From the sequence record PQ818761.1: DNA of 64,000 nucleotides. One strand, written 5' to 3'. Within the stretch, counting starts at the first letter, position 1; each line of letters opens with the position of its first letter. Source of the stretch: Escherichia phage EcoM2. Both the position numbers and the translations under genes were made by a program. The notes under the pieces were generated by a model that was not told the origin of the DNA, did not search any database, and worked only from the letters and a program-made list of their open reading frames with translations. Positions 1 to 58,091 of this stretch are shown here, in pieces.

Positions 1-1571
1 ACGCCACCTTCTTTGAACGTGATAAAAAAGAAGCAATTGATGAAATCTTAGAAGTCATGAATGGTGTTCTGGGTAAAGATGCTATTGGTCGAGAGCATTG
101 GGAAGCACTTCATGATTTGGGTTATCTACCAGTTGAAGTATACGCTGTAGAAGAAGGCACAGTTGTACCTATGCGTGTGCCAATGATTGTCTTCCAGAAT
201 ACTGTTTCAGGTTTCCATTGGGTAGCGGGGTATCTGGAAGATGCTTTCTCTGCTGAGATTTGGAAGGCTTGTACCATTGCAACTATTGCATTGCACTACA
301 AACGTATCTGTAAGAAGTGGGCTGACCTTACTTGTGACAACGACTTGCATTTACCTTATCAGTGCCATGACTTTGCTATGCGTGGTATGTCCGGCTTTAC
401 TGATGACGCATTTAACGCTGTAGGCCACTTAACCAGCTTTAAAGGAACTGATAGCTTCCCTGCTGTATATACAGCTAAACGCATCTACGGTCAGTCCTAC
501 CCAATCTCTGATATTGGTAGCTCTGTACCCGCCACTGAACACTCTGTAATGTGTGCAAACATTGCTTGGGAAGGTGGTAATGAGTTGATTGAAGAAGAAA
601 GACGCTTCAAAGGTGAGTTACAAACCTTCCGTCGCTTCTTAACAGAAACTTACCCAACTGGTATTGCAAGTGTTGTTTCAGACACTTATAATTTCTGGAG
701 AACTGTATCAGTAATACTACCAGAACTCCGTAAAGAGATTATGGAACGTGATGGCAAACTGGTAATTCGTCCTGACTCTGGAGACCCTGTACATATTGTC
801 ACAGGTTATAAAGCAATTCACTTAGAGTGTGCTAAAAAGGCTTATTACGAACACCTAAGCAAGCTGGAAGCCAGCGACACAATGTTGAATACTGTTCTGA
901 ACATGAAGCTTGAAAACATCAACTATGGTATTGCTGGATGGCTACTGTCAGAAGGCTACGAAATGGTTGTTGACAGAGAAGACTTTGAAGTTGCTGATAC
1001 AGTGATGTTGAAAAATGCTTATATGGTTGGTTCTGCAAACGTTGTAACACGTCCTGTAGCAGAGATTGATGGGGCTATTAAGACACTGTATAACATCTTT
1101 GGAGGGACTATCAACTCTAAAGGTTTTAAGGTACTGGATGAGCACATTGGCCTTATCTATGGTGACTCTATCACGTTGGAACGTGCAAACGAAATCCTGA
1201 AGCGTTTGTATGAAATGGGTTTTGCAAGCTCTAACGTAGTGTTTGGTGTAGGTTCTTACACTTACCAGTACATGACTCGTGACACCTTTGCATTTGCTGT
1301 CAAAGCAACTCTTGCAAGCATTGGTGGTAAAGAGATTATGCTTGCAAAAGACCCTAAAACAGATAGTGGTGTTAAGAAGTCTGCTTTTGGTGGTGTAGCA
1401 CCTATGTGGGATGGCGATAAGCTGAAAGCTGTAGATGGCTATGGATTCCAGAGCTTTGCAGATGTGCTTGAACATCCAGCTTGTGCTTTACGTTTAGTCT
1501 TTAGTGACTCTGAGCAGTTCGGTTACACAACTCTTGGTGATATTCGAAATAATATTGACAAGCAGCTTTAA
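1..1571 (+). CDS. nadV: nicotinamide phosphoribosyltransferase (NAMPT/NadV-like), 5' partial
   Basis: Frame of ORF 57..1571 stays open back to nt 1, so the gene starts upstream of the window; recalled NAMPT-like motifs (AVEEGTVVP, SVPATEHS, ASVVSDTYNFW, LVIRPDSGDP). Confidence 0.7.
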   Translation, partial: ATFFERDKKEAIDEILEVMNGVLGKDAIGREHWEALHDLGYLPVEVYAVEEGTVVPMRVPMIVFQNTVSGFHWVAGYLEDAFSAEIWKACTIATIALHYKRICKKWADLTCDNDLHLPYQCHDFAMRGMSGFTDDAFNAVGHLTSFKGTDSFPAVYTAKRIYGQSYPISDIGSSVPATEHSVMCANIAWEGGNELIEEERRFKGELQTFRRFLTETYPTGIASVVSDTYNFWRTVSVILPELRKEIMERDGKLVIRPDSGDPVHIVTGYKAIHLECAKKAYYEHLSKLEASDTMLNTVLNMKLENINYGIAGWLLSEGYEMVVDREDFEVADTVMLKNAYMVGSANVVTRPVAEIDGAIKTLYNIFGGTINSKGFKVLDEHIGLIYGDSITLERANEILKRLYEMGFASSNVVFGVGSYTYQYMTRDTFAFAVKATLASIGGKEIMLAKDPKTDSGVKKSAFGGVAPMWDGDKLKAVDGYGFQSFADVLEHPACALRLVFSDSEQFGYTTLGDIRNNIDKQL

Positions 1572-1586
1572 AAGTATATGATAAGA

Positions 1587-1607
1587 GGCTCCTACGGGAG
1601 CCTTTTT
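1587..1607 (+). terminator. rho-independent terminator
   Basis: GGCTCC-tacg-GGAGCC hairpin followed by TTTTT. Confidence 0.6.
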
Positions 1608-1624
1608 AACTTCTGGAGAAGATT

Positions 1625-1960
1625 ATGAAAATCAAAGAAATGAACATCAATATTGTCTTAGAAGAACGCTGGGAGAACATCAAGAAGCCTGAAAATGGTC
1701 ATAAGTTCCTCAACAAAATCTTAGTAGCAGCTAAAGAAGAACTGACTGGCAAGGTTGCAGCAGCAATCACAATAAAGGTCTGTGTAAAAGGTCTTCCAGA
1801 CAATCACCAATTTGCACTTGACGAGTTTAAAGAAAGCTTCTACAATCCAAACAAACAGATGCTTGAAAGTAACTTTGCAGTATCTACAAGTATCGTCCAT
1901 GACAGAAGCTTTATCCTTTACAAGAATATGAGAGGTGAGTCATGCAAGCATATTGGATAG
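1625..1960 (+). CDS. hypothetical protein
   Basis: 111-aa ORF with GAGA-type RBS upstream of ATG, co-oriented with neighbours. Confidence 0.5.
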   Translation: MKIKEMNINIVLEERWENIKKPENGHKFLNKILVAAKEELTGKVAAAITIKVCVKGLPDNHQFALDEFKESFYNPNKQMLESNFAVSTSIVHDRSFILYKNMRGESCKHIG

Positions 1961-2146: not shown

Positions 2147-4513
2147 ATGCGCATGGTAAACGACCACGCAGAAGTGATTAAGAGTTCAACTTCTTTAGAG
2201 ACGTCTCAAGCACAGATTACAATGACACCTGAAATGTTCAGCCTTTTGAGTTCTGGTGTATATACCTTTAAAGAAAGGGCAGTGATTCGTGAACTGTCAT
2301 GTAACGCAGTAGATGCTCAGAAAGAAGCTGGAAAAGAGAATATCCCGTTCCATGTGCATTTACCTACTCGTTTTGAGCCTTACTTTGAAGTTCGTGATTT
2401 TGGAACTGGATTGACTCATGATAAAGTTATGAGTTTGTATCTAAATTACGGGGCTTCTACGAAGAATGACTCTAATGACTACATTGGTGCAATGGGTATC
2501 GGCTCAAAATCCCCATTTGCAATTGCTCAGTCATTCACAGTGTCTAGCTATGTTGACGGTGTTGTTAATAAGTACTCTGTTTATCTTGAGAATGGTATCC
2601 CTCAAGTAACTAAGCTGACCACTAACCCAACAAAAGAACCTAATGGTTTAGCTGTACGTGTGGCAGTTGCTGACCACCGTATTTCAAAGTTCTTTGAAGA
2701 GGCTGGTAATGTATACTCATACTTTGCTGTAAAACCAGAGAGTAATGTGGAGTATAATGATATATTAGCAGATATGGATGTGATTGCTCGTGAAGAAGGT
2801 GTCTATGATGCCATGACTCATAAGCATAGCTGGCGTTCAAGCAGCAATAGAACAGAGTTTAACGTGGTTATGGGTAATATTGCCTACCCAGTTAATATGG
2901 AGGCATTACTTGGTGATGATTTCTTCAAAGTCTTGCCAGAATTTTTCCGTAGGAGCGTAGACCTTGTAAACATCTACATGCCTATTGGTTCAGTTGCTAT
3001 CGCAGCTTCTCGTGAAGCATTGCAGATGAATGACACGACAAAAAATGTTATCATTGAGGCTACTAAAAAGATAACTGAAGCAATTACAAAGGATGTTATC
3101 AAGAAAGTTAATAGCCAACCTACACTCATGGATGCTGCACAGGCTTATGCTGAGTTACGTTTGAACTCACGAGAGATGTTTAATGCTGTGTGTCCAAAGC
3201 TAGAGTGGGGTGGTGTTAAGCTTGATTCTCTGGAAGAAGAATTACTAAACATTCGTCGTGGAATTATCTACGCAGAAGACGGCTCAGTCATTTATGAACG
3301 TGACGGCAAAGGTAATATTAAGGTTGATAGGAACGGGAACAATATCCCTAAAGTAGATTATCTTTATGACCCAGTTGCTTATGTCAAGTTCAACTCTTTA
3401 GAGAGTAAGATTCGTGCAACATCGCTTTCCTACACTCAAGAGGCAAGTATGTTCAATATCTTTGGTGCAATGCGTAAAAGCCAAATTGAACAGTTTTTGT
3501 TTGTTATAAATGACCGTCGCAATAAAAACGGTACTGAGAAGACTGTAGGACGCAATCAAATCTTGCGTGGTGCATGTCGAGACTATGCCAGTGAGTCTAG
3601 TCTGTTTCACAGATACAATGGTATTGTCTTTGTATTCTCGACTGAAAAAGAGCTAGATGACTTAATCAATCTACACAAACTTGACAAAAGCTTGTTAAAG
3701 ATTGTGAAGATGTCTGATAAGGAACACCATTATCAGCGTAAAGAAGCTGTAAGAGGTGTTGTAAAACTCTGGAAAGCTGTTCCAGCAGAAGGTGTAGCTT
3801 CCTATAAAGAGGTTTCAGAGGACTTAGACACAATTGAAGAGCCTCAACTTTATATCAAGGCAGTCGGTGACACAGTTGATGGCGAATGTTTTTGCTCATC
3901 TCCAGAAGATGTAGCTAAGTCAGTTGCCAATGTCATTGGAAAGACAGTCTATGTTTTCCGAAAAGCAAATTGGAAAAAGATACCAGAAGACTGGATTGAA
4001 GTAGATGAGAAGCTCTTGAACGACAGCTTAACTGATGTTCACTGGATTAACCATAACAGGTATATGACACGTATCTATATGAATGGTGTTCTTGACCTTA
4101 CAAGCAGTTGGATTATTGCCAGAAACTTTACGTTCAATAACAGGAAGATTTCTCGTGGCTATTGCTATTCACGAGACACAAACAAAACTATCTTCTTAGA
4201 AGGCAATGAAGATGCTGTAGAGGCAATGTTCGGTAAAATCCAATACGTTGCTGCACCGTTTGCATACACTTACACTATTAGCAGATTGCAAACTTTGAAA
4301 GAATGCCTTGACAATGATACAAAGCTATACAAGAAAATTAAGAAAGCTGGTGACCGTATGGTTATTAAGGTGACAAACTATCTTTCAAAAAGAAAACAAG
4401 AAAACTTCTTGCTTTCTCATTTAGATTGGAATAAAGTGTCACCCATCGAAGTGAGTAAGTTCTTAGGCTTTGATGTGAAGTGTGTTCCAGAAGGGACTAC
4501 AATTTACGATTAA
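2147..4513 (+). CDS. rIIA: rIIA-like protein with N-terminal GHKL-type ATPase fold
   Basis: 788 aa; Bergerat-fold-like motifs (VRDFGTGLT, GAMGIGSKS); size and position before a second large gene match the rIIA-rIIB pair of T4-like and Felix-O1-like phages. Confidence 0.55.
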   Translation: MRMVNDHAEVIKSSTSLETSQAQITMTPEMFSLLSSGVYTFKERAVIRELSCNAVDAQKEAGKENIPFHVHLPTRFEPYFEVRDFGTGLTHDKVMSLYLNYGASTKNDSNDYIGAMGIGSKSPFAIAQSFTVSSYVDGVVNKYSVYLENGIPQVTKLTTNPTKEPNGLAVRVAVADHRISKFFEEAGNVYSYFAVKPESNVEYNDILADMDVIAREEGVYDAMTHKHSWRSSSNRTEFNVVMGNIAYPVNMEALLGDDFFKVLPEFFRRSVDLVNIYMPIGSVAIAASREALQMNDTTKNVIIEATKKITEAITKDVIKKVNSQPTLMDAAQAYAELRLNSREMFNAVCPKLEWGGVKLDSLEEELLNIRRGIIYAEDGSVIYERDGKGNIKVDRNGNNIPKVDYLYDPVAYVKFNSLESKIRATSLSYTQEASMFNIFGAMRKSQIEQFLFVINDRRNKNGTEKTVGRNQILRGACRDYASESSLFHRYNGIVFVFSTEKELDDLINLHKLDKSLLKIVKMSDKEHHYQRKEAVRGVVKLWKAVPAEGVASYKEVSEDLDTIEEPQLYIKAVGDTVDGECFCSSPEDVAKSVANVIGKTVYVFRKANWKKIPEDWIEVDEKLLNDSLTDVHWINHNRYMTRIYMNGVLDLTSSWIIARNFTFNNRKISRGYCYSRDTNKTIFLEGNEDAVEAMFGKIQYVAAPFAYTYTISRLQTLKECLDNDTKLYKKIKKAGDRMVIKVTNYLSKRKQENFLLSHLDWNKVSPIEVSKFLGFDVKCVPEGTTIYD

Positions 4514-4592
4514 AGTGTTTGACAAGGGGCTTCAAAGCCCCTTAGAATAGCCTCACAAAATGATTTATTAACTAACAAGAGAGAGTAATAAG

Positions 4593-5702
4593 ATGACTAC
4601 TAAAACTAAAGCACAGATTGACGCAGAAATTTATGAACTGGTTAAAGAAGGTAAGCTGACTAAAACAGCTATTGCACAGAAGTTCAATACTTCAACCCGT
4701 TCAGTTGGTCGTGCTGTAGAGCGTCATGAAGCAACCTTAAAAGGCAAGAAAAAGGCAACTTCTAAGCCAGCTACAAAGACTTTGAAGCAAGTTGCTAAGT
4801 CAGTTAAAAAGAAAGCTGGCAAACCAGTTGAAAAGGTTGTTAAAGACACTGTACAGAAAGCTCCAGTAAATAAACTGCACGAAGCTATGCAGAAAGATGA
4901 TAAGATTGAGTACATGATTACTGGTGACTCTGTAATTATGACTTACGGTTCAGAATCTGAAATTGTTGAGTCTACTCATCCGAACTATCAAGAGATTGTA
5001 GTTCATGTTGTGAAAGGTGAGTTCAAGAAAGCATTTGAACTGATGAACATTCGTAAGTCTATCGAAAACTTCACTCAGGGTGCTATCACAATCAAAGGTG
5101 ACAAGTTATTCTACGGTGCTGTTGAGATGCGTTCTACTCTGGTTGACCGTATTCTTCACATGATGAAGACTGGTGATAAAGGTTTTGAACGACTTGTAAT
5201 GTTCTTCGAAAAACTGATGGAAAACCCATCTAAAGACTCTGTAGAACAACTTTGGGGCTTCGTATCTCACCTTGATGTCGAAATTGATGAAGAAGGCTAC
5301 ATCATTGGTTGGAAGAAAGTATCCACTCGTGAAGGCAAGCTGGTTGACTCCCACACCTACAAAGTACCTAATGATTTGGGTAACGTTGTAGAAATGCCAC
5401 GTTGGATGGTTGATAATAACCGTAACGTAACTTGCTCTCAGGGTCTTCATGTTGGTGCTTGGGATTATGTTCGTTGCTTCTCAGGTGATACAATCCTGAA
5501 GGTTCGTGTCCATCCACGAGATGTTGTATCTGTTCCGACTGATTACAACGATATGAAGATGCGTTCATCCCGTTATGAAGTTGCAGCAATCGTTGATAAT
5601 CAACGTAAAGTGTTGAAAGCATGGGACGGTAAGACTGAAGCTTTGCATGTCATCGTTGGCACTGCTGGTGAACTCATCTCCCAACGTAAACGTGAAATCT
5701 AA
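4593..5702 (+). CDS. rIIB-like protein (putative)
   Basis: 369 aa immediately downstream of the rIIA-like gene; N-terminal HTH-like segment; assignment by synteny only. Confidence 0.4.
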   Translation: MTTKTKAQIDAEIYELVKEGKLTKTAIAQKFNTSTRSVGRAVERHEATLKGKKKATSKPATKTLKQVAKSVKKKAGKPVEKVVKDTVQKAPVNKLHEAMQKDDKIEYMITGDSVIMTYGSESEIVESTHPNYQEIVVHVVKGEFKKAFELMNIRKSIENFTQGAITIKGDKLFYGAVEMRSTLVDRILHMMKTGDKGFERLVMFFEKLMENPSKDSVEQLWGFVSHLDVEIDEEGYIIGWKKVSTREGKLVDSHTYKVPNDLGNVVEMPRWMVDNNRNVTCSQGLHVGAWDYVRCFSGDTILKVRVHPRDVVSVPTDYNDMKMRSSRYEVAAIVDNQRKVLKAWDGKTEALHVIVGTAGELISQRKREI

Positions 5703-5718
5703 TAAGTAATTTCTTAAA

Positions 5719-5741
5719 AGGCTGCTTCGGCGGCCTTTTTT
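5719..5741 (+). terminator. rho-independent terminator
   Basis: GGCTGC-ttcg-GCGGCC hairpin followed by TTTTTT. Confidence 0.6.
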
Positions 5742-5802
5742 ATTTGTATTTTGTGCAGAGTACTGTATAATTGTTGTCACGATAAACTAAACAGGAGAAC
5801 CA

Positions 5803-6351
5803 ATGAAGAAATTGATTCTAAGTTTGTGCTTAATGTTTACAGCACACTTATCTTATGCAGTTGACTGCCCAGAGCTATCAATTAGCCAAAAAGTAAACAT
5901 GTTAAAAGCTTACCAGTATGGTGAGAATAATATGGGTAAAGGTTGGGGTATTACTCTAGCTGCTATAGCCTTACAAGAGTCAGAGTTAGGTCTGAAGGTA
6001 GAGAATAAAAAGACACATGATTATGGTATTTTCCAGAATCACTTGAAGACTGTTGTAAAGCGTAACAAAATTAGTCCTAATGTGGCTAAAAAGAAACTCT
6101 TAAGAGACTTTGATTATGCTGCGAAGGAAACTCACAAAGAACTTGAGTTTTGGACAAAGGTGCATGGCCAGCCAAAGTCAAAGAAGACTTTACAAAAAGT
6201 TTTAGCATCATATAATGCTGGGTATTCGTACAAAATCCCTAAAGCTAAGAAATATTCTCAAGATGTCTATAACAACATGAAAGTTATTGCTCAATGTGAA
6301 TTTGCAACAAACATTTCTAAGGTAAATCATGAAAAAATTAAGAAAGTCTGA
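5803..6351 (+). CDS. secreted lytic transglycosylase-like (SLT domain) protein
   Basis: N-terminal signal peptide (MKKLILSLCLMFTAHLSYA); SLT-like motifs LQESELG, YGIFQ, SYNAGY. Confidence 0.45.
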   Translation: MKKLILSLCLMFTAHLSYAVDCPELSISQKVNMLKAYQYGENNMGKGWGITLAAIALQESELGLKVENKKTHDYGIFQNHLKTVVKRNKISPNVAKKKLLRDFDYAAKETHKELEFWTKVHGQPKSKKTLQKVLASYNAGYSYKIPKAKKYSQDVYNNMKVIAQCEFATNISKVNHEKIKKV

Positions 6352-7024
6352 TGAAGTACTGTGTCATGCTTATGACTTACATCCTCATGAGTTAGGTCTT
6401 GATTCCTGTGTATGGACTCCAGAACAGTGTAGGGATTTTGAAGACACCGCAAGAGAAGTTGTATGTTCACTCGAAGAGTTTCACACATCAGAGACAATTG
6501 TGAATGTTGTAGATAAAGAGACTGGACAAGCTATAGGTGTAAGGCGTGACAGCTTAGTCATAGTCAATAAAGACCTTGTAGAAAAAGGTAACCTTATCTT
6601 AGCAGACATTGATGGTGTTCTTACAAATTTTAATCACGAAGATTGCTCAACGGAATTGATTGATGGGTCATTTTCACAGTACACTAATTTGCTTGACTCT
6701 GTAAGAGCAAAACCAACGTATGTTTTCAATATTATTGATGCAATTGCTAATCATGCCGCCATTGGACTCTTGACAGCGAGAGGTGAATCTCAGAGAATAC
6801 CTACTGAGATGTTTTTAAGGCATTACATAGAGCATGATTACATACTTTTTATGCGTGGTTTTGGGACTAACTCTATAAGTGCAGAAAGTTTGAAAGTGAG
6901 GATGATTCAGTCTTGCATTCTGCCTTACTTTAATATAGTATGTTTTATAGAAGATACAGAGAAGAATGTGCAGAAGGTGAACAGAATCCTTCCACACATT
7001 AAAACCATGTTAGTTAAACATTGA
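6329..7024 (+). CDS. hypothetical protein with C-terminal HAD-like nucleotidase motifs
   Basis: 231 aa; LILADIDGVLTNF (HAD motif I-like), LLTARG, FIEDTEKN; functional call tentative. Confidence 0.35.
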   Translation: MKKLRKSDEVLCHAYDLHPHELGLDSCVWTPEQCRDFEDTAREVVCSLEEFHTSETIVNVVDKETGQAIGVRRDSLVIVNKDLVEKGNLILADIDGVLTNFNHEDCSTELIDGSFSQYTNLLDSVRAKPTYVFNIIDAIANHAAIGLLTARGESQRIPTEMFLRHYIEHDYILFMRGFGTNSISAESLKVRMIQSCILPYFNIVCFIEDTEKNVQKVNRILPHIKTMLVKH

Positions 7025-7034
7025 GAGAAAACTT

Positions 7035-7499
7035 ATGAATAATATCATTACGGTAGCACTGGACGATACGGCAAACAAATCTGAAGTAGTTCGTAAAATG
7101 ATTCAAGGTAACTTTGAAGGTAAAATTTTCCGTGCTGTTAATGTAAAAGCTGATGGTAGCATTCGTGAATATCGTGCATTGTTGAACGTTAAGAAGCACG
7201 TAAAAGGTGTTGGTTCAACGACTGCACACAAAGAAAACCTGATGACTATCTATGATATGGGCAAGGCTTCAGAGTTAGGTGCTGAAGGTATCGTTAAAGA
7301 AGGTGCTCCGTATCGCTCTTTCAATCTGGAAACTACTCTTATGCTTTCCTTTACAAGTGGTTCTAAAACAATCACTTACCTCTTTACTGATGCTGCAACG
7401 GTATCTGCTATTAAGGATAGCACTGTCAAAGCTGGCGTAGTTGCTGCTGCAAAAGCTTCTTCGATGGCTGCAAATATCCTTGCTAAAGTTCTCGGTTAA
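7035..7499 (+). CDS. hypothetical protein
   Basis: 154-aa ORF, followed by terminator. Confidence 0.5.
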   Translation: MNNIITVALDDTANKSEVVRKMIQGNFEGKIFRAVNVKADGSIREYRALLNVKKHVKGVGSTTAHKENLMTIYDMGKASELGAEGIVKEGAPYRSFNLETTLMLSFTSGSKTITYLFTDAATVSAIKDSTVKAGVVAAAKASSMAANILAKVLG

Positions 7500-7510
7500 G
7501 GTTAAGATAC

Positions 7511-7532
7511 AGGCTCCTTCGGGAGCCTTTTT
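7511..7532 (+). terminator. rho-independent terminator
   Basis: GGCTCC-ttcg-GGAGCC hairpin followed by TTTTT. Confidence 0.6.
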
Positions 7533-7551
7533 CATTTCAGGAGATTGTTAA

Positions 7552-7899
7552 ATGACATTTAAAGAGTTCTGTCAAGCTACTTTCATAATTGTTTTCTTAG
7601 TTGGGACAGGTGTCTGGGGAGGATACTCTTACAGAGGCTACCAAGTTGCTGAAGCTGAGTTAAGCAATGAGAAACTAATAAGTGTTGCTAAAGATGCTTA
7701 TCAGGAAGGTTTAGCCACACTCAGCACCAATTACAAAAATGATTTGAAAGATGTGCTTGCTAAGAATAAGCACACAAAAGAGGTACTAACATATGAAAAA
7801 ACTAAGCCAGAGTTTTATAATGTTTGTGTTACTGACAATTATGTCAGGGTGTTCAACGAACAAAGTGAACAGTACATTCAAAAACTCCCAAGTAAGTGA
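7552..7899 (+). CDS. i-spanin-like protein (N-terminal TM, helical periplasmic domain)
   Basis: 115 aa; TM segment FIIVFLVGTGVWGG; overlaps a lipoprotein ORF in another frame. Confidence 0.4.
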   Translation: MTFKEFCQATFIIVFLVGTGVWGGYSYRGYQVAEAELSNEKLISVAKDAYQEGLATLSTNYKNDLKDVLAKNKHTKEVLTYEKTKPEFYNVCVTDNYVRVFNEQSEQYIQKLPSK

Positions 7900-8062
7900 G
7901 AGTGACAAGTACACACAAGAAGAGTCAAGATTCACTGTCAAAGGTAATACTGGTAGTGATGTGGCAGCAGCCCTTGAGTTTTATCGTGATGGTTTTTACC
8001 AGTGCACAATTAAAGCTAATAACCTTATTGATATGATTTTATTAGGAAATAAACAGCAATGA
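7793..8062 (+). CDS. o-spanin-like outer-membrane lipoprotein
   Basis: 89 aa; lipoprotein signal with lipobox (LTIMSGC); starts inside the preceding gene in a different frame and extends beyond it. Confidence 0.4.
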   Translation: MKKLSQSFIMFVLLTIMSGCSTNKVNSTFKNSQVSESDKYTQEESRFTVKGNTGSDVAAALEFYRDGFYQCTIKANNLIDMILLGNKQQ

Positions 8063-8328
8063 CAGAGAATGAAGATACTTTTTACGTAGAAGGTTACTTA
8101 CTGTTACCACGACCAAAAGAAACTTATATGCGAATTGACTTCTTGCCAACCATTATGGATAATGTGATGTGTCATATCTTTATGCAAGGTGTCACAGCAC
8201 AGCTTAAGCACGTTGGTAAAGAGTGCAAAATAAAGGTTGACACTCATCCAGAAATCAAAGAGAATCACTACACATGGTTCTTACCAGATTCTAAAGAAAT
8301 CTTAGCAGTTCTTAAAACGAGGAAATGA
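8059..8328 (+). CDS. hypothetical protein
   Basis: 89-aa ORF, overlapping start/stop with neighbours. Confidence 0.45.
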   Translation: MTENEDTFYVEGYLLLPRPKETYMRIDFLPTIMDNVMCHIFMQGVTAQLKHVGKECKIKVDTHPEIKENHYTWFLPDSKEILAVLKTRK

Positions 8329-8639
8329 TTATGCAATTCCAGCCAACCAATCGTGGATTTTCTTATGCAGAATTTAAAGATGCTAAAGGGGAAATTTGTA
8401 CTTTACAAGAGAGTTCATCATATGAACCATGTATCTGGTTAGGTGCTAAAGAGGTCTCTGTTCAGTATCTAGATGGTGGCTGGAAAACACTTGATATCCC
8501 AGCATTAGTAGGCAAAGATTTTGTAGGTAACCAAAGAATGAAACTCAACCAAGAACAGGTGAAAGAGCTATTGCCATACCTTCAGTACTTTGCTGAAAAT
8601 GGTGAATTACCAACAGAGGAACTTACAAATGCAGATTAA
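8325..8639 (+). CDS. hypothetical protein
   Basis: 104-aa ORF in operon-like arrangement. Confidence 0.45.
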   Translation: MIMQFQPTNRGFSYAEFKDAKGEICTLQESSSYEPCIWLGAKEVSVQYLDGGWKTLDIPALVGKDFVGNQRMKLNQEQVKELLPYLQYFAENGELPTEELTNAD

Positions 8640-8955
8640 CGGAAGAGACTTTGTAGCCGTTTACTATGAGAAAGATAAAGAAGTTGGTGTAGCACAAGTA
8701 TCTTATGGTAATGGTAAGTGGTTGTATGGGACAATCGCAGTAGTCGGAACAAGAAGTGATACAAAAACTTTTAAAGACTGTGTTGACCTTCTTGAAGAAT
8801 CCATCCATAATCATTGGTGTCTGATATGGATGACTGACAACGAAGTGATAGAACGCTTCAAAAAGATTGGTATCAACATTGATAGCATTGAACATGTTGA
8901 TTTATATGAGCTAACTGAGAAGGTAAACTATGAAAGTAATACTAGCCAGAGATAA
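8590..8955 (+). CDS. hypothetical protein
   Basis: 121-aa ORF; start may be downstream of the track start. Confidence 0.4.
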   Translation: MLKMVNYQQRNLQMQINGRDFVAVYYEKDKEVGVAQVSYGNGKWLYGTIAVVGTRSDTKTFKDCVDLLEESIHNHWCLIWMTDNEVIERFKKIGINIDSIEHVDLYELTEKVNYESNTSQR

Positions 8956-9157
8956 AAAGACACGGAAACTTATCAGGTCAGCGGTGTTCATTGGACGAAA
9001 TGAGGTCATACCATTTACAGCAAATGATGTGATAGCTTACCGGAAGAACTTAGTATTCACTGACTGTTTACGTGGCTTCATCTCTGAACCATTAGAACAC
9101 TTTAAAAGCCGTTGTGGTAAAGGAATCATCATTCAAGAGGCAATTATTCATGGCTGA
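8930..9157 (+). CDS. hypothetical protein
   Basis: 75-aa ORF. Confidence 0.4.
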   Translation: MKVILARDKKTRKLIRSAVFIGRNEVIPFTANDVIAYRKNLVFTDCLRGFISEPLEHFKSRCGKGIIIQEAIIHG

Positions 9158-9350
9158 CTTCTGCAAAGACTGTTCTATAGAAATGTTTGGACGTGATACA
9201 GGTGACTTAAAAGGTCTTATCACTGAAGATGACTTTAAAGCTGGCTATGCAATGCCAGTAATCTGTGAAGGTTGCGGGTGTATCTGGGTAGACCACGAAG
9301 GACAACGTGTAAAACCTTCAGAAGATAAAGAGTCTTGGGAGAGATGTTAA
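9114..9350 (+). CDS. hypothetical Cys-rich protein
   Basis: 78 aa with CxxC and CEGCGC motifs. Confidence 0.4.
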   Translation: MVKESSFKRQLFMADFCKDCSIEMFGRDTGDLKGLITEDDFKAGYAMPVICEGCGCIWVDHEGQRVKPSEDKESWERC

Positions 9351-10130
9351 ATGGGTATTGTAAAAGTTGTGAAAGGTAACTTACTGGCTGCCTTCAAAAA
9401 CACAGATATCGAGTTAATTGCTCATGGTTGCAACTGTCGTAACCTCATGGGTGCTGGAATCGCTCAAAAAATTGCTAAGATTTTCCCAAAAGCTGAAGAA
9501 GCTGACAGGAAATTCCATAAGAAGTTTGGCTACAATGCTCACGATATAGGATACCAGATGATTGGTGAGGTGTCACATGCTCGAACAGAGTATGGTTACA
9601 TTTTTAACCTATATACACAGTTGGATGTTGGAAAGTGTGCATCATACCGATACTTAGTGGAGTCACTAGAAAAACTCCGTAAGTTTTGCTGGATGCACAA
9701 CATTCGTAAGATTGGTTTACCCATGATTGGGGCAGGTATCGGTGGGTTAGACGCACAAGCCGTGAAAAGCCTCATTAATAGCATTATGTACAACGTTGAT
9801 GTGTACCTATACGTCTATGATGAAGCAATGGCAACTGTAGTTACCCCTAAGTATGCCACCTCAGCACCACAATTCTATGATGGTGTTGTTCTCAGTGACG
9901 GTAAGTCTAACCATGTTACCCTCTATCAACTTGTTGAAGGTAAGGTAGAGGTTAGTTACCCTCTGGTTAGTGAGATGGGTATGTGTAACAGTGAAATGTT
10001 CTCAGTTGACCCGTTTGGTAGATACGAAGGGGTATTCTTTGATAACTACCCAGCAGCATACATCTACACAACAAATCAGGATGAAGTTCACTACTTGCTG
10101 TATTCTAAAAAGTTCAAATTCATAAGCTGA
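9351..10130 (+). CDS. macro-domain (ADP-ribose binding/processing) protein
   Basis: 259 aa; macro-domain-like motifs HGCNCRNLMGAGIA and LPMIGAGIGGL. Confidence 0.55.
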   Translation: MGIVKVVKGNLLAAFKNTDIELIAHGCNCRNLMGAGIAQKIAKIFPKAEEADRKFHKKFGYNAHDIGYQMIGEVSHARTEYGYIFNLYTQLDVGKCASYRYLVESLEKLRKFCWMHNIRKIGLPMIGAGIGGLDAQAVKSLINSIMYNVDVYLYVYDEAMATVVTPKYATSAPQFYDGVVLSDGKSNHVTLYQLVEGKVEVSYPLVSEMGMCNSEMFSVDPFGRYEGVFFDNYPAAYIYTTNQDEVHYLLYSKKFKFIS

Positions 10131-10163
10131 TTAGCACTTCACATTATCTACAAATCATCCAAG

Positions 10164-10210
10164 AAGGCTGCCTAACCAATTGAAAAATTTAAGGTAAGGC
10201 GGCCTTTTTC
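10164..10210 (+). terminator. putative terminator (long-loop hairpin plus T-run)
   Basis: AAGGCTGCC ... GGCGGCCTT followed by TTTTC. Confidence 0.4.
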
Positions 10211-10374
10211 ATTTCCAATTTGTGCAGGTATCTGTAGAGGTCTGCACAAATACCTCAAAAAATCTCACCTCCAGATAGAAAAATCATTTTCAAAACGTGC
10301 AGACCCCGCTCAGGTCGGGCAAGAAAAATCATTTTAGAATTGTGCAGGTAGGATTTTATAGAGAGCCAGACCAG

Positions 10375-10405
10375 CCCCTCTCCCCCTCTTACTCCCCCTC
10401 TCCCC
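10375..10405. other. C-rich tract (i-motif) / G-quadruplex motif on the complementary strand
   Basis: CCCC-tct-CCCCC-tcttact-CCCCC-tct-CCCC; four C-runs with 3/7/3-nt loops, unusual in this AT-rich genome. Confidence 0.5.
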
Positions 10406-10526
10406 AAAAGTCAAGAGAAAAATTTGTAGCGGATTGAAAAATAATTCTTGATTTGTGTTCTGTTTTGTGGTAGTCGTGTGCGCCCGTTTCATTACAGTTT
10501 TGCTAAAAATATTTTTAAAATTTTTC

Positions 10527-10618
10527 TTGACTCTTTGAACGTGGTTATCTAGTATTTGCATCAACAGGGAGGGAATGTCCTTCCCCACTAAATAAAGTCC
10601 TAAACTGGAGATTCAAAA
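10527..10618 (+). promoter_or_regulatory. early promoter module A (TTGACT-N17-TAGTAT) with 5'-leader hairpin and conserved RBS
   Basis: Sigma70-like hexamers; leader hairpin GGGAGGGAATGTCCTTCCCC; conserved ACTAAATAAAGTCCTAAACTGGAGATTCAAAAATG. Confidence 0.55.
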
Positions 10619-11002
10619 ATGAAATACCGTGCACCTAAATTCATCAACAAAGACAACTTTCGCAACGCACTGGAGAAGTCACTTGATGAAAGTTTTAAAG
10701 GTAACATTATCGTTGTTCACGCATTCAATTTTAAGTATGATGTAAACGGGAATAGAATCAACCATTACACGGCAACCATGTTAGATGGTACACTTTCAAG
10801 TGAAAAAGCCGTACTAAATGCACTGGCAGGACGTGGAAAGGTATTAGTAAGATGTGATAAGAGACGTTATCAGGGCGGCGCATATGGTTATGATGATGCT
10901 GTTTACCATCTTGAAAATATGGGCTATCAAGTAGAAAAAGCTGGAGCATCACAAATCATCGGCAGCGATGGTTATGTAACTATCTTCAAAATTAACAAAT
11001 AA
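10619..11002 (+). CDS. hypothetical early protein
   Basis: 127 aa; ATG preceded by conserved module-A leader with GGAG RBS. Confidence 0.6.
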   Translation: MKYRAPKFINKDNFRNALEKSLDESFKGNIIVVHAFNFKYDVNGNRINHYTATMLDGTLSSEKAVLNALAGRGKVLVRCDKRRYQGGAYGYDDAVYHLENMGYQVEKAGASQIIGSDGYVTIFKINK

Positions 11003-23441: not shown

Positions 23442-23906
23442 TTACTTTGGATATACACTGTCAAGATAAATGTCAGCTTCCATTCTACGTCTGTTTTTCA
23501 GTCCGTTTGAAGTGACCTTCTGACCTTTGACTGTAACCTTGTTCCACCACTGCATAGCTTCTGCACAACCTACCTTATTACCAGCATTGTGGCGCTTGAT
23601 AAATGTAGAATCCTGCATAGCTGTGATACCGATGTTGTATGTTTCACTTACAAGTGCATCGAACTCATTCTGAGAGGTTGGAACCTTGATAGCTTTATTC
23701 ACTGCTGCAACGAACTTCTCAACATCTGCAAGAAGATACTGTTCAGCTTGTTCAGCAGTAATTTTCATACCCATCTTAACAGGTTTTCCGTCAATACGGA
23801 TTGTACCATACCCAATTGTCGGGATTCCGGCAGAGTCTTCGTAAGCCTCTAACTTCAGACCTTCGAAGAACTTAATAGCTTCTAAACCTTTTCTTGAGAG
23901 TTGCAT
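23442..23906 (-). CDS. phage lysozyme (T4 e-type, GH24 endolysin)
   Basis: 154 aa; GH24-like motifs EGLKLEAYEDSAG-IPTIGYGT and NIG. Confidence 0.75.
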   Translation of the reverse strand: MQLSRKGLEAIKFFEGLKLEAYEDSAGIPTIGYGTIRIDGKPVKMGMKITAEQAEQYLLADVEKFVAAVNKAIKVPTSQNEFDALVSETYNIGITAMQDSTFIKRHNAGNKVGCAEAMQWWNKVTVKGQKVTSNGLKNRRRMEADIYLDSVYPK

Positions 23907-25039
23907 TATGCCTCCCCTGCTGGGTTAACTGTAACTGTTGCCGCATTAGATGTTACAGAACCACCTGCGCCAGTCACTACACAGGTGTAGCTTCCTGCAT
24001 CAGCAGCGGTTGCACCTTCTTTGGTGTAAGTTGCAGCAGTTGCATCTGGGATGACTTCCTCACCTTTCTTCCACTGATAACCTGTCGCACCTGTTGCCAC
24101 AACATTCAGTGTTAAGGTCTCACCTTCAGTGATTTCTTGATTGGTTGGTTGCTGAGTGATTACCGGAAGTGCATTCACAGTAACTGTTGCAGGGCTAGAA
24201 GTAACAGAACCACCTGCACCTGTTACAACGCAAGTGTATGAACCTGCATCTGCTGGCAGAGCACCAGACTTGCTATAGGTAGCGTTTGTCGCTGAAGGAA
24301 TGTCAGAGCCATCTTTCTTCCACTGGTAACCTGTCGCACCTGTTGCAGTAACTACTAAGTTGATGTTTCCACCTTCATTAATAGTCTGATTAGAAGGTTG
24401 CTTGGTAATCACAGGTAGTGCGTTCACAGTAACTGTTGCTGCATCTGAGGTAACACTTGTTCCACCCTCTCCAGATACAACACAAGTGTATGAACCAGCG
24501 TCAGAAGGTGCTACTGACTGTTTTGTGTAAGTTGCAGAATTGGCACTAGGGATATCCTCACCATCCTTCTTCCACTGATATCCAGTGGCGTTAGTTGCTA
24601 GAATGCTTAGAGTAAGTGTGCCACCCTCATTGACTGTTTGACCTGTTGGTTGCTGAGTAATTGCTGGTGGCTTAATAGCATCCTTCAACTTAGCATTCAA
24701 CATTGAGAACGGCTTAACTCTTGCCAACCATTCACAATACACTGTGTCAACGTCTTTACCATTGATGATTGCATACTGTAAATCCATGAAGAAATCAGCA
24801 GTCCTCATCTGTGCACCAACACTGTAAAGGAGTTCATCACTAAAAGGAACTTTGTAGTCTGGTTTGTAGTCAAACTTCGCAACCTCTGCAATATCAGCTT
24901 CAGGCCAATATGAGCTATAGGTTAGCGGTAAAATAGCTTCTTGATATGTTCTAAAATCATATCTCTTACCAGCCTTTACATTTGCAACGAAACCTTTTAC
25001 AAATTCTTTGAAGTCTGGGTAAGTCTTTGCTTTAATCAT
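23906..25039 (-). CDS. Ig-like repeat protein (N-terminal domain plus three tandem Ig-like domains; Hoc-like surface protein candidate)
   Basis: 377 aa; three ~80-aa repeats each with PVITxQP...GATGYQWKKDG...AGSYTCVV; N-terminal ~120 aa paralogous to adjacent 123-aa ORF. Confidence 0.55.
   Translation of the reverse strand: MIKAKTYPDFKEFVKGFVANVKAGKRYDFRTYQEAILPLTYSSYWPEADIAEVAKFDYKPDYKVPFSDELLYSVGAQMRTADFFMDLQYAIINGKDVDTVYCEWLARVKPFSMLNAKLKDAIKPPAITQQPTGQTVNEGGTLTLSILATNATGYQWKKDGEDIPSANSATYTKQSVAPSDAGSYTCVVSGEGGTSVTSDAATVTVNALPVITKQPSNQTINEGGNINLVVTATGATGYQWKKDGSDIPSATNATYSKSGALPADAGSYTCVVTGAGGSVTSSPATVTVNALPVITQQPTNQEITEGETLTLNVVATGATGYQWKKGEEVIPDATAATYTKEGATAADAGSYTCVVTGAGGSVTSNAATVTVNPAGEA
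23909..24652 (-). repeat. three tandem ~240-bp repeats encoding Ig-like domains
   Basis: Near-identical protein repeats visible in translation. Confidence 0.6.
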
Positions 25040-57525: not shown

Positions 57526-57723
57526 ATGCCTACAATCCTAGCAATTCTTCTAAAAAATCTAGGTAGCTTCTTCTGGAAACTCATTTTATCCCTTCTAAGT
57601 GAATACATGATTGAGAAAGTGTTCTTTAGGCTTGCAAGATACCTTGCGAGTAAAACAGACACACCTATTGATGATGAGTTCGTAGATAATTTAGAAAAAG
57701 CTTTTAAGGGGGAGAATAAATGA
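57526..57723 (+). CDS. small membrane protein (holin-like candidate)
   Basis: 65 aa; N-terminal hydrophobic/amphipathic segment, charged C-terminus; own promoter. Confidence 0.35.
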   Translation: MPTILAILLKNLGSFFWKLILSLLSEYMIEKVFFRLARYLASKTDTPIDDEFVDNLEKAFKGENK

Positions 57724-58091
57724 AGTGGCTAGAGGAAGCTTTTAAAAATAATATTGGTGCAATTGTAGTTGGTATTTTTAGTGTTATTGGGATGTATACC
57801 ACGATGCAAGTTTCAAGTGGTAAACAAGAAGTGTCTGTCACAACAAAGTTACAGCAGCTAGATAATTATTCCAAAAGTAACTATTCAGCTATTCGTGATT
57901 TACAGTCTGACATGAGACTGATTCAGCTAGGGATGGAGAACCAGAAAGTTCAGTTAGAGAATGTTAAGGGTGAAAACGCAAAACTTACCAAAACTCTTGA
58001 TAAATTCTCTGACAGTGTGAATAATCTGGCTCAATCAGTATCAGCCCTCCAAGCTATTACTGAAAAGAACACAAAGAGTACTGAAAAGTAA
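57720..58091 (+). CDS. membrane-anchored coiled-coil protein (lysis-associated candidate)
   Basis: 123 aa; N-terminal TM (IGAIVVGIFSVIGMY) then coiled-coil-like region. Confidence 0.35.
   Translation: MKWLEEAFKNNIGAIVVGIFSVIGMYTTMQVSSGKQEVSVTTKLQQLDNYSKSNYSAIRDLQSDMRLIQLGMENQKVQLENVKGENAKLTKTLDKFSDSVNNLAQSVSALQAITEKNTKSTEK

Follow-up and report, generated by a model that had tools for sequence, protein, structure and literature searches.

A probable overlapped spanin gene pair of the Felix O1 type, set apart from the endolysin gene

Two small overlapping genes, one for a membrane protein and one for a putative lipoprotein, raise the question of whether they form the spanin of the phage that carries them, and of how a location so far from the phage lysozyme gene is to be understood. 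We considered both questions across the 64-kb stretch of DNA in which the genes lie, referred to below as the window. We put the probability at about 0.9 that a Felix O1-like myophage has its overlapped two-component spanin encoded in this region. The window as a whole is assigned with confidence to Felixounavirus, that is, to the Felix O1-like myophages: the 1.7 kb around the pair are 98.2% identical to Escherichia phage KEP1 and match 257 phage records, almost all of them from Felixounavirus and its relatives.

In the six-frame ORF list, the first of the two reading frames encodes 115 residues and begins with MTFKEFCQATFIIVFLVGTGVWGG (also given as MTFKEFCQATFIIVFLVGTGVWGGYSYRG...KLPSK), and the second encodes 89 residues and begins with MKKLSQSFIMFVLLTIMSGCSTNK (also given as MKKLSQSFIMFVLLTIMSGCSTNKV...GNKQQ). 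The 89-aa frame opens 241 nt into the 115-aa frame, in the +1 register relative to it, and continues for 163 nt past its stop codon, so that the stretch common to both is 107 nt long (Table 1). Each start codon is preceded by a Shine-Dalgarno-like sequence. The first of these is the same string that is given for the Felix O1 i-spanin in the supplement of the spanin survey (PMC6139136), and the phage Mordin record has a ribosome-binding site annotated at the place equivalent to the second. Ahead of the i-spanin gene, in the gap that parts it from the 154-aa gene upstream, stands a GC-rich hairpin resembling an intrinsic terminator, and a terminator is annotated at the corresponding position in the records of Mordin and phiEa21-4. 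A promoter scan of positions 3000..11000 returned 24 sigma-70-like sites compared with 20.0 +/- 4.7 in shuffled sequence, which is no enrichment, and no convincing promoter between the terminator (hairpin 7511..7528) and the i-spanin start. Two features of the minus strand, a 51-aa ORF (7786..7941) and a terminator-like site (7903..7884), were set aside as chance features, as the local variation tracks the two plus-strand frames.

Table 1. Coordinates of the predicted spanin pair, its signals and the other lysis genes or candidates in the window.
Feature	Position	Strand	Basis
Terminator-like hairpin, AGGCTCC-TTCG-GGAGCCT followed by a T run	7511..7535	+	Sequence scan
Shine-Dalgarno AGGAG, 8 nt 5' of the i-spanin ATG	7539..7543	+	Sequence
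Predicted i-spanin gene, 115 aa	7552..7899	+	ORF, PHROG 1152, hydropathy, third-position variation, Felix O1 entry (PMC6139136)
Hydrophobic segment of the i-spanin	7567..7623	+	Kyte-Doolittle
Shine-Dalgarno GAGG, 9 nt 5' of the o-spanin ATG, within the i-spanin gene	7780..7783	+	Sequence
Predicted o-spanin gene, 89-aa precursor	7793..8062	+	ORF, PHROG 4180/456, lipobox, o-frame variation, annotation in Mordin and JN01
Dual-coding overlap, 107 nt	7793..7899	+	Low variability without codon-position bias
Predicted lipoprotein signal peptide of the o-spanin	7793..7849	+	
Conserved C-terminal motif of the i-spanin	7813..7860	+	
Periplasmic Cys92 of the i-spanin	7825..7827	+	
Predicted acylated Cys20 of the o-spanin	7850..7852	+	
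Cys71 of the o-spanin	8003..8005	+	
Endolysin gene, 154 aa, GH24 phage lysozyme	23442..23906	-	PF00959 E=9e-41; PHROG 7 endolysin 4.5e-58
Pair of small genes, 65 and 123 aa	57526..57723 and 57720..58091	+	ORF list; directly 3' of the gp37-like tail fibre gene

We compared the two products with the features by which Summer et al. (2007) and Kongari et al. (2018) define two-component spanins, namely a type II inner-membrane protein, an outer-membrane lipoprotein, a characteristic gene architecture and periplasmic cysteines. The 115-aa protein contains a single hydrophobic segment, at residues 6-24 by Kyte-Doolittle analysis, and its other 91 residues are polar and predicted, by a low-confidence model, to be helical. 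This corresponds to the one N-terminal transmembrane domain and the predicted periplasmic C-terminal domain of a type II protein. Single-sequence AlphaFold2 gave a mean pLDDT of 52 for each of the two proteins and offers a weak hint of helical content only; for the Felix O1 i-spanin, Kongari et al. did not predict a coiled coil (PMC6139136). The C-terminal portion carries a conserved motif, F88-YNVC92VTDNYVRVFNE103, and among 28 distinct relatives both C7, in the cytoplasmic or membrane part, and C92, in the periplasmic part, are invariant. Over its full length the protein matches the 'Rz-like spanin' family PHROG 1152 (E=2e-41).

The 89-aa product has the appearance of a lipoprotein precursor, with a basic N-terminus (MKK) followed by a hydrophobic core at residues 4-21 (Kyte-Doolittle). 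Residues 1-19 are predicted to form the signal peptide, so that the precursor begins MKKLSQSFIMFVLLTIMSG|C-S-T, and the lipobox reads I-M-S-G-C20. Methionine at position -3 lies outside the strict [LVI] consensus; in relatives this residue is I, L or M, and o-spanins with non-consensus lipoboxes have been documented (PMC6139136). The lipobox ends in Cys and is followed by Ser at +2, where the Asp that signals inner-membrane retention is absent, as is characteristic of an outer-membrane lipoprotein. When the six frames of the whole window were scanned by our own simple criteria, this was the sole ORF with a lipoprotein-type signal peptide. The mature part, 70 aa long and free of proline, contains one further cysteine, C71, within the conserved motif LEFYRDGFYxC...NNLID, and both SGC and C71 are invariant in 22 distinct versions of the protein. 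Each subunit thus has one invariant periplasmic cysteine (i-spanin C92, o-spanin C71), and the gene of the second overlaps that of the first by 107 nt on the same strand. The 89-aa protein matches PHROG 4180, of unknown function, at 3e-50 and the 'Rz-like spanin' family PHROG 456 weakly, at 7.6e-5.

Neither protein reaches the threshold of a curated Pfam or NCBIfam family, and a sequence search of the PDB returned no relatives of either. We rejected the sub-threshold hits to SH3b_T, TMEM174, NAGLU_N and generic lipoprotein signals as noise or as matches to the signal peptide only. The original prediction, made from the DNA letters and a list of open reading frames, had described this locus as an i-spanin/o-spanin-like pair of the overlapped type: a 115-aa protein with an N-terminal transmembrane helix and, in another frame, an 89-aa lipoprotein with a lipobox that starts inside the first gene and extends beyond it. 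The ORF list agrees with the arrangement of frames, the segment at residues 6-24 with the helix, and hydropathy, the MSG|C site and the six-frame scan with the lipoprotein; the architecture as a whole is borne out by the ORFs, PHROG 1152, existing annotation and the published survey (PMC6139136).

That survey shows that the pair is already known. Kongari et al. (2018) placed Felix01, FO1a and UAB_Phi87 among the phages with overlapped spanins, and their list enters Felix01 as 'ovl', with an i-spanin at 5330-5678 (115 aa, gene of 348 nt), an o-spanin at 5571-5841 (89 aa, of which 70 aa are mature and periplasmic) and an overlap of 107 nt (PMC6139136). The Felix O1 pair, as given in SpaninDB and in the GenBank records of Mordin, JN01 and JK55, has the same lengths, overlap and Shine-Dalgarno string as the pair in the window, and likewise follows rIIA, rIIB, a PNK-like gene and a 154-aa gene. 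The differences amount to strain-level substitutions only, and the i-spanin of the window is 94.8% identical to gp6 of FO1a. These matches place the pair in the Felix O1 spanin family and in PHROG 1152. Dozens of Felixounavirus and Mooglevirus records, including those from the Center for Phage Technology, label the two ORFs i-spanin and o-spanin, and the o-spanin is annotated at the same start in Mordin (Center for Phage Technology) and in JN01. In other words, these are ordinary genes of Felix O1-like phages that have stood in the spanin catalogue since 2018, and as the standard outer-membrane-disruption module of the group they matter little beyond annotation. Some public records miss the o-spanin or begin it at the wrong ATG, and there the start at 7793, together with the evidence for dual coding described below, could mend the annotation.

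The resemblance to the spanins of lambda is one of architecture. Rz and Rz1 likewise comprise a type II inner-membrane protein and an outer-membrane lipoprotein whose gene lies in the +1 frame, periplasmic cysteines are present there too, and the presumed mechanism, a periplasm-spanning complex that is freed when the peptidoglycan is degraded and then brings about membrane fusion, is the same. The lambda genes are embedded, whereas those of the window are overlapped and lie outside any S-R-Rz cassette. Rz1 is short and proline-rich, unlike the proline-free mature o-spanin of the window with its predicted C-terminal helix. Searches of the two proteins gave no match to the Pfam families Rz (Phage_lysis) or Rz1 at E<=1. 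A single BLASTP comparison with lambda Rz gave a marginal alignment (E=0.002) over 42 residues, ending at C99 of Rz and C92 of the i-spanin, which is too weak for us to claim homology, and the comparison with Rz1 gave nothing. The pair accordingly falls outside the Rz and Rz1 sequence families as far as these searches can place it.

The T4 spanins, PseT.3 and PseT.2, offer a different set of likenesses. In BLASTP comparisons the i-spanin of the window gave no alignment with them and the o-spanin reached only E=8.3, which puts the pair, as judged by these alignments, outside the PseT.3/PseT.2 families as well. The T4 proteins are nonetheless of similar size (117 and 99 aa as annotated), and T4 likewise has dispersed lysis genes, with its spanins among early-type genes and with a single gene between them and a polynucleotide kinase/phosphatase-like gene. 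The T4 order is alc, pseT.3, pseT.2, pseT.1, pseT, which, relative to the PNK-like gene, is reversed in the window. Since the window's PNK-like protein matches T4 PseT weakly, over the HAD phosphatase part only (E about 0.1), and the order is reversed, we do not take the shared proximity of spanin and PNK genes as a sign of common descent. The T4 spanin genes are separated, in contrast to the overlapped genes of the window, and T4 has no periplasmic cysteine in its i-spanin and two in its o-spanin (PMC6139136), unlike the one per subunit found here.

How, then, are the lysis genes of the window distributed? The endolysin gene lies 15.4 kb from the spanin pair on the opposite strand. The neighbours of the pair are rIIA and rIIB, the PNK-like gene and macro-domain genes, an early/middle-type block behind the terminator and not a late lysis cassette. 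Candidates for the holin lie elsewhere again, in the two small genes behind the tail fibre gene. By Kyte-Doolittle analysis the longer product, of 123 aa, has a single membrane helix near its N-terminus, at residues 11-31, and the 65-aa product is no more than borderline hydrophobic. They belong to PHROG 402 and PHROG 4038 (the 123-aa protein to 4038), both of unknown function, and neither matches a holin family in Pfam. The Mijalis record calls the longer gene 'putative holin' and the shorter 'putative cytoplasmic membrane protein', and several other records use 'holin'. T4 gene t follows the tail-fibre gene 38, which is paralleled by the position of the candidate behind the gp37-like tail fibre gene of the window. 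The authors of the Meda genome identified no holin (PMC6486253). A holin/antiholin label for these two genes is plausible, and is not a new idea.

These observations agree with what had been anticipated for the rest of the lysis system, namely a GH24 lysozyme about 15 kb away, which the PF00959 match and the measured distance confirm, and a pair of small ORFs after the tail fibres, whose coordinates hold. The further proposal that the lysis functions are dispersed is right, and had already been published: scattered lysis genes have been described for Felix O1-like phages in the genomes of Moogle (PMC4319497), Meda (PMC6486253) and Felix O1 itself (PMC3185647), and the layout has been in print since 2010-2015. 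Spanins that stand apart from the endolysin and the holin candidate are the normal layout of this phage group, as they are in T4.

The likely course of events at lysis can be outlined from the models for lambda Rz/Rz1 and T4 PseT.3/PseT.2, as summarised in the survey (PMC6139136), and from general lipoprotein biology. The N-terminal helix of the i-spanin would anchor the protein in the inner membrane and leave about 90 residues on the periplasmic side. The o-spanin precursor would be acylated at Cys20, cut by signal peptidase II and carried by the Lol pathway to the outer membrane, where it would sit in the inner leaflet, a location that we predict because Asp is absent at +2. The C-terminal periplasmic parts of the two proteins would then bind each other, so that the complex reaches across the periplasm and through the meshwork of the peptidoglycan. 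Intermolecular disulfides, which appear to be general in spanins (PMC6139136), may stabilise this complex, and C92 and C71 could supply the cysteines. Once the holin lets the GH24 endolysin destroy the peptidoglycan, the spanin complexes would be free to move and to change conformation, and would act on the inner and outer membranes, by fusing or disrupting them, as the last step of lysis. In Felix O1 the transcript of ORF 6, which from gene order we infer to be the i-spanin, reaches its maximum at 25 min and falls into one class with that of the lysin, ORF 35 (PMC3185647 Table 3).

More distant homologues of the pair, at 26-40% identity, occur in Sashavirus, Kuravirus, Kolesnikvirus and Gorganvirus and in a Yersinia phage of the Peduoviridae. 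The genes of Salmonella phage Sergei (Sashavirus) run holin/antiholin, endolysin, holin, i-spanin, o-spanin; those of Yersinia phage YenM324 (Peduoviridae) run holin, a 'metallopeptidase' in the position of the endolysin, i-spanin, o-spanin; and the homologous pair of Proteus phage 2207-N35 has an endolysin gene just upstream. The pairs of Sergei and YenM324 are thus part of a lysis cluster, whereas the pair of the Ounavirinae is detached from the other lysis genes. With these distant proteins the window's i-spanin shares F.N.C..[D/P].Y..(F/Y)NE, and its o-spanin shares C-S/T-T and Y..C....N.L.

Whether both frames are in use can be judged from the pattern of variation among close relatives. 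We compared 29 related viral contigs and phage Mordin, which together give 28 distinct nucleotide versions, and in all 30 the ORFs are kept at exactly 115 and 89 codons. In the 241 nt that belong to the i-spanin only, variable sites at codon positions 1, 2 and 3 of the i-frame number 22/81, 14/80 and 59/80 (39% variable); in the 163 nt that belong to the o-spanin only, the corresponding figures in the o-frame are 15/54, 8/54 and 46/55 (42% variable). Across the 107 nt of overlap they are 9/35, 7/36 and 10/36 in the i-frame, or 26/107 in total (24% variable). The bias by codon position has a chi-square p of ~1e-13 in each flank and of 0.69 in the overlap, and the overlap is less variable than the flanks (Fisher p=0.002), values that are indicative, as the sequences are related by descent. 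Because third-position variation dominates in each flank and variation in the overlap is low and unbiased, the pair is evidently more than chance, with two translated frames that are each subject to purifying selection. It is accordingly extremely unlikely that the 115-aa gene alone is real and that the 89-aa ORF is a chance +1 frame with a coincidental lipobox. Such a reading could draw on the public annotation, in which several GenBank records either lack the second ORF or label it 'hypothetical', one record has it begin at an internal ATG (MSGC...) and so removes the signal peptide, and a comparative paper gives only the i-spanin for one phage (PMC8300805). These missing calls are better attributed to gene callers, which are biased against overlapped genes (PMC6139136). 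A coincidental frame would also have to stay open at an unchanged length, with the SGC lipobox and C71 preserved, in 31 of 31 sequences, follow its own third-position bias past the i-spanin stop, and have homologous lipoproteins with the same C-terminal motif in distant phages.

Two other readings accept both proteins as real and differ from ours in what the pair does or in how it is joined. The genes could form an envelope-modifying or superinfection-exclusion module, expressed with the surrounding early/middle genes and not concerned with lysis, in which an inner-membrane protein and an outer-membrane lipoprotein block receptors or DNA entry in the manner of T5 Llp or T4 Imm/Sp. The setting lends this some appeal: the pair sits among the rIIA/rIIB, PNK-like and macro-domain genes and not among late genes, a terminator precedes it and a convincing promoter of its own was not found, and in the literature we found neither an experimental test of any member of the Felix O1-type spanin family nor experimental proof of its function. 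The T4 spanins, however, also lie among early genes and are functional spanins (PMC6139136), and homologues of the present pair adjoin the endolysin in three unrelated lineages, and the holin as well in two fully annotated records. Overlapped genes in a +1 relation, for a type II membrane protein and a lipoprotein, are a hallmark of spanins (PMC6139136), and, as this is the sole lipoprotein ORF of the window, a myophage that infects a Gram-negative host would on the rival reading have no spanin there. We therefore consider exclusion or envelope modification improbable. Even less probable, to our mind, is a working spanin whose subunits are joined to each other by a heterotypic i-o disulfide through their single periplasmic cysteines, instead of by i-i and o-o bonds. 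There is exactly one conserved periplasmic cysteine per subunit, each inside the most conserved C-terminal motif, and it is in the C-terminal region that the subunits of other spanins are believed to make contact (PMC6139136). One cysteine per subunit is nevertheless fully compatible with homodimers, and all spanins examined so far, those of lambda and T4, use homotypic bonds (PMC6139136). An overlapped two-component spanin of the familiar kind remains our preferred reading. Against it stand the missing Pfam and NCBIfam matches, the lack of significant similarity to the T4 spanins, the marginal match to Rz with nothing for Rz1, the coiled coil that Kongari et al. did not predict, the low-confidence models and the early/middle-type setting.

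The overlap itself has one further property. In one frame it contains the C-terminal 35 codons of the i-spanin and its stop; in the other it specifies the signal peptide of the o-spanin, the lipobox and the residues with which the mature part begins. The i-spanin motif F-x-N-x-C-x-x-(D/P)-x-Y-x-x-(F/Y)-N-E, the best-conserved stretch of that protein, is encoded within the overlap. In the window the string G TGT TCA ACG AA (7849..7860) reads V-F-N-E in the i-frame (codons 7848..7859) and C-S-T in the o-frame (7850..7858). We examined the equivalent position in nine phages: the window, Mordin, phiEa21-4 (Kolesnikvirus), Arno162, IMEP8 (Kuravirus), YenM324, Sergei, Klebsiella KPN_H2 and Proteus 2207-N35. 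In all nine the TGT codon of the lipobox cysteine occupies the same position inside the (F/Y)NE codons: the pattern nTG TWC AAC GAn gives x-(F/Y)-N-E when read in one frame, while the other yields C-(S/T)-T; read from the second frame, some 10 nt, TGT WCA ACG A, encode both Cys-Ser/Thr-Thr in the o-spanin and (F/Y)-N-E in the i-spanin (9/9). This suggests an old, register-locked overlap common to a broad spanin superfamily, which would be a small addition to published work. A stronger version, in which Ounavirinae, Kuravirus, Sashavirus, Gorganvirus and the Peduoviridae phage make up one wide superfamily with an ancient, frozen overlap and perhaps a covalent arrangement unlike that of lambda or T4, is a tentative proposal that we hold to be rather doubtful. 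If it were true, the best-conserved part of the protein would be the i-spanin's C-terminal region inside the overlap, the opposite of what Kongari et al. described for three families of mixed architecture, where the overlap region is variable (PMC6139136).

The overlap of the i-spanin gene with the o-spanin gene is locked in register across nine phages of several lineages. In all nine, the codon for the lipobox cysteine of the o-spanin falls within a conserved (F/Y)NE motif of the i-spanin, where one frame of the nucleotides nTG TWC AAC GAn gives x-(F/Y)-N-E and the other gives C-(S/T)-T. The comparison took in positions 7813..7860 of the window and the equivalent places in eight comparison loci from other phages (L004, L034, L035, L036 and L041-L044), and its lineages comprise myo-, sipho- and podophages.

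Public annotation treats the o-spanin unevenly. At least one record (MW481326.1, 3843..4064, corresponding to 7841..8062 of the window) begins the protein at an internal ATG (MSGC...), which costs it its signal peptide, and in other records the ORF is uncalled or labeled 'hypothetical'. The start consistent with a lipoprotein is 7793, and GAGG lies 9 nt upstream of it. In Citrobacter phage BSwM KMM4 (OP902293.1), a frameshift after about codon 21 breaks the i-spanin frame, and the o-spanin is intact despite this. The frameshift is either a sequencing error or the mark of a defective i-spanin.

Residues 51-92 of the i-spanin (7702..7827) align by BLASTP with residues 58-99 of lambda Rz at 24% identity, with E=0.002 in a single comparison. 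The end of the alignment pairs C92 with C99, a cysteine through which Rz forms disulfides. An alignment this marginal is too weak for a claim of homology to Rz, and we make none.

A strong terminator-like hairpin lies directly 5' of the i-spanin gene and is conserved, a terminator being annotated at the equivalent position in the related phages Mordin and phiEa21-4. Since a promoter scan found no convincing promoter between this hairpin and the i-spanin gene, expression of the spanins must depend either on read-through or on a promoter that has escaped recognition. The same question is posed in the genome paper on Felix O1 (PMC3185647).

A single gene separates the spanin pair from a 'polynucleotide kinase' gene upstream of it. 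The T4 spanins pseT.3/pseT.2 sit one gene upstream of pseT (L039, the T4 region, 131000-136300). Resemblance of the 'polynucleotide kinase' to T4 PseT is confined to the HAD phosphatase part and is weak (E about 0.1). By sequence, the spanins of the two phages are unrelated. A 259-aa ORF shares an early-type gene block with the spanin pair.

Features of the spanin and endolysin regions
Feature	Location	Strand	Remark
'Polynucleotide kinase' gene	6329..7024		PHROG 3970
Gene between 'polynucleotide kinase' and spanin pair	7035..7499		
Terminator-like hairpin	7511..7535		
259-aa ORF	9351..10130	+	macro domain-containing protein or phosphatase (label in relatives)
377-aa ORF	23906..25039	-	immediately upstream of endolysin
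Frameshifted i-spanin, BSwM KMM4	OP902293.1, about 1477..1821		in frame only to MTFKEFCQAAFVIIFLIGVGAW

The 377-aa ORF carries three tandem repeats of ~90 aa that are immunoglobulin-like in look (...ATGYQWKKDG...AGSYTCVV...), and its product is a candidate Hoc-like protein decorating the surface.
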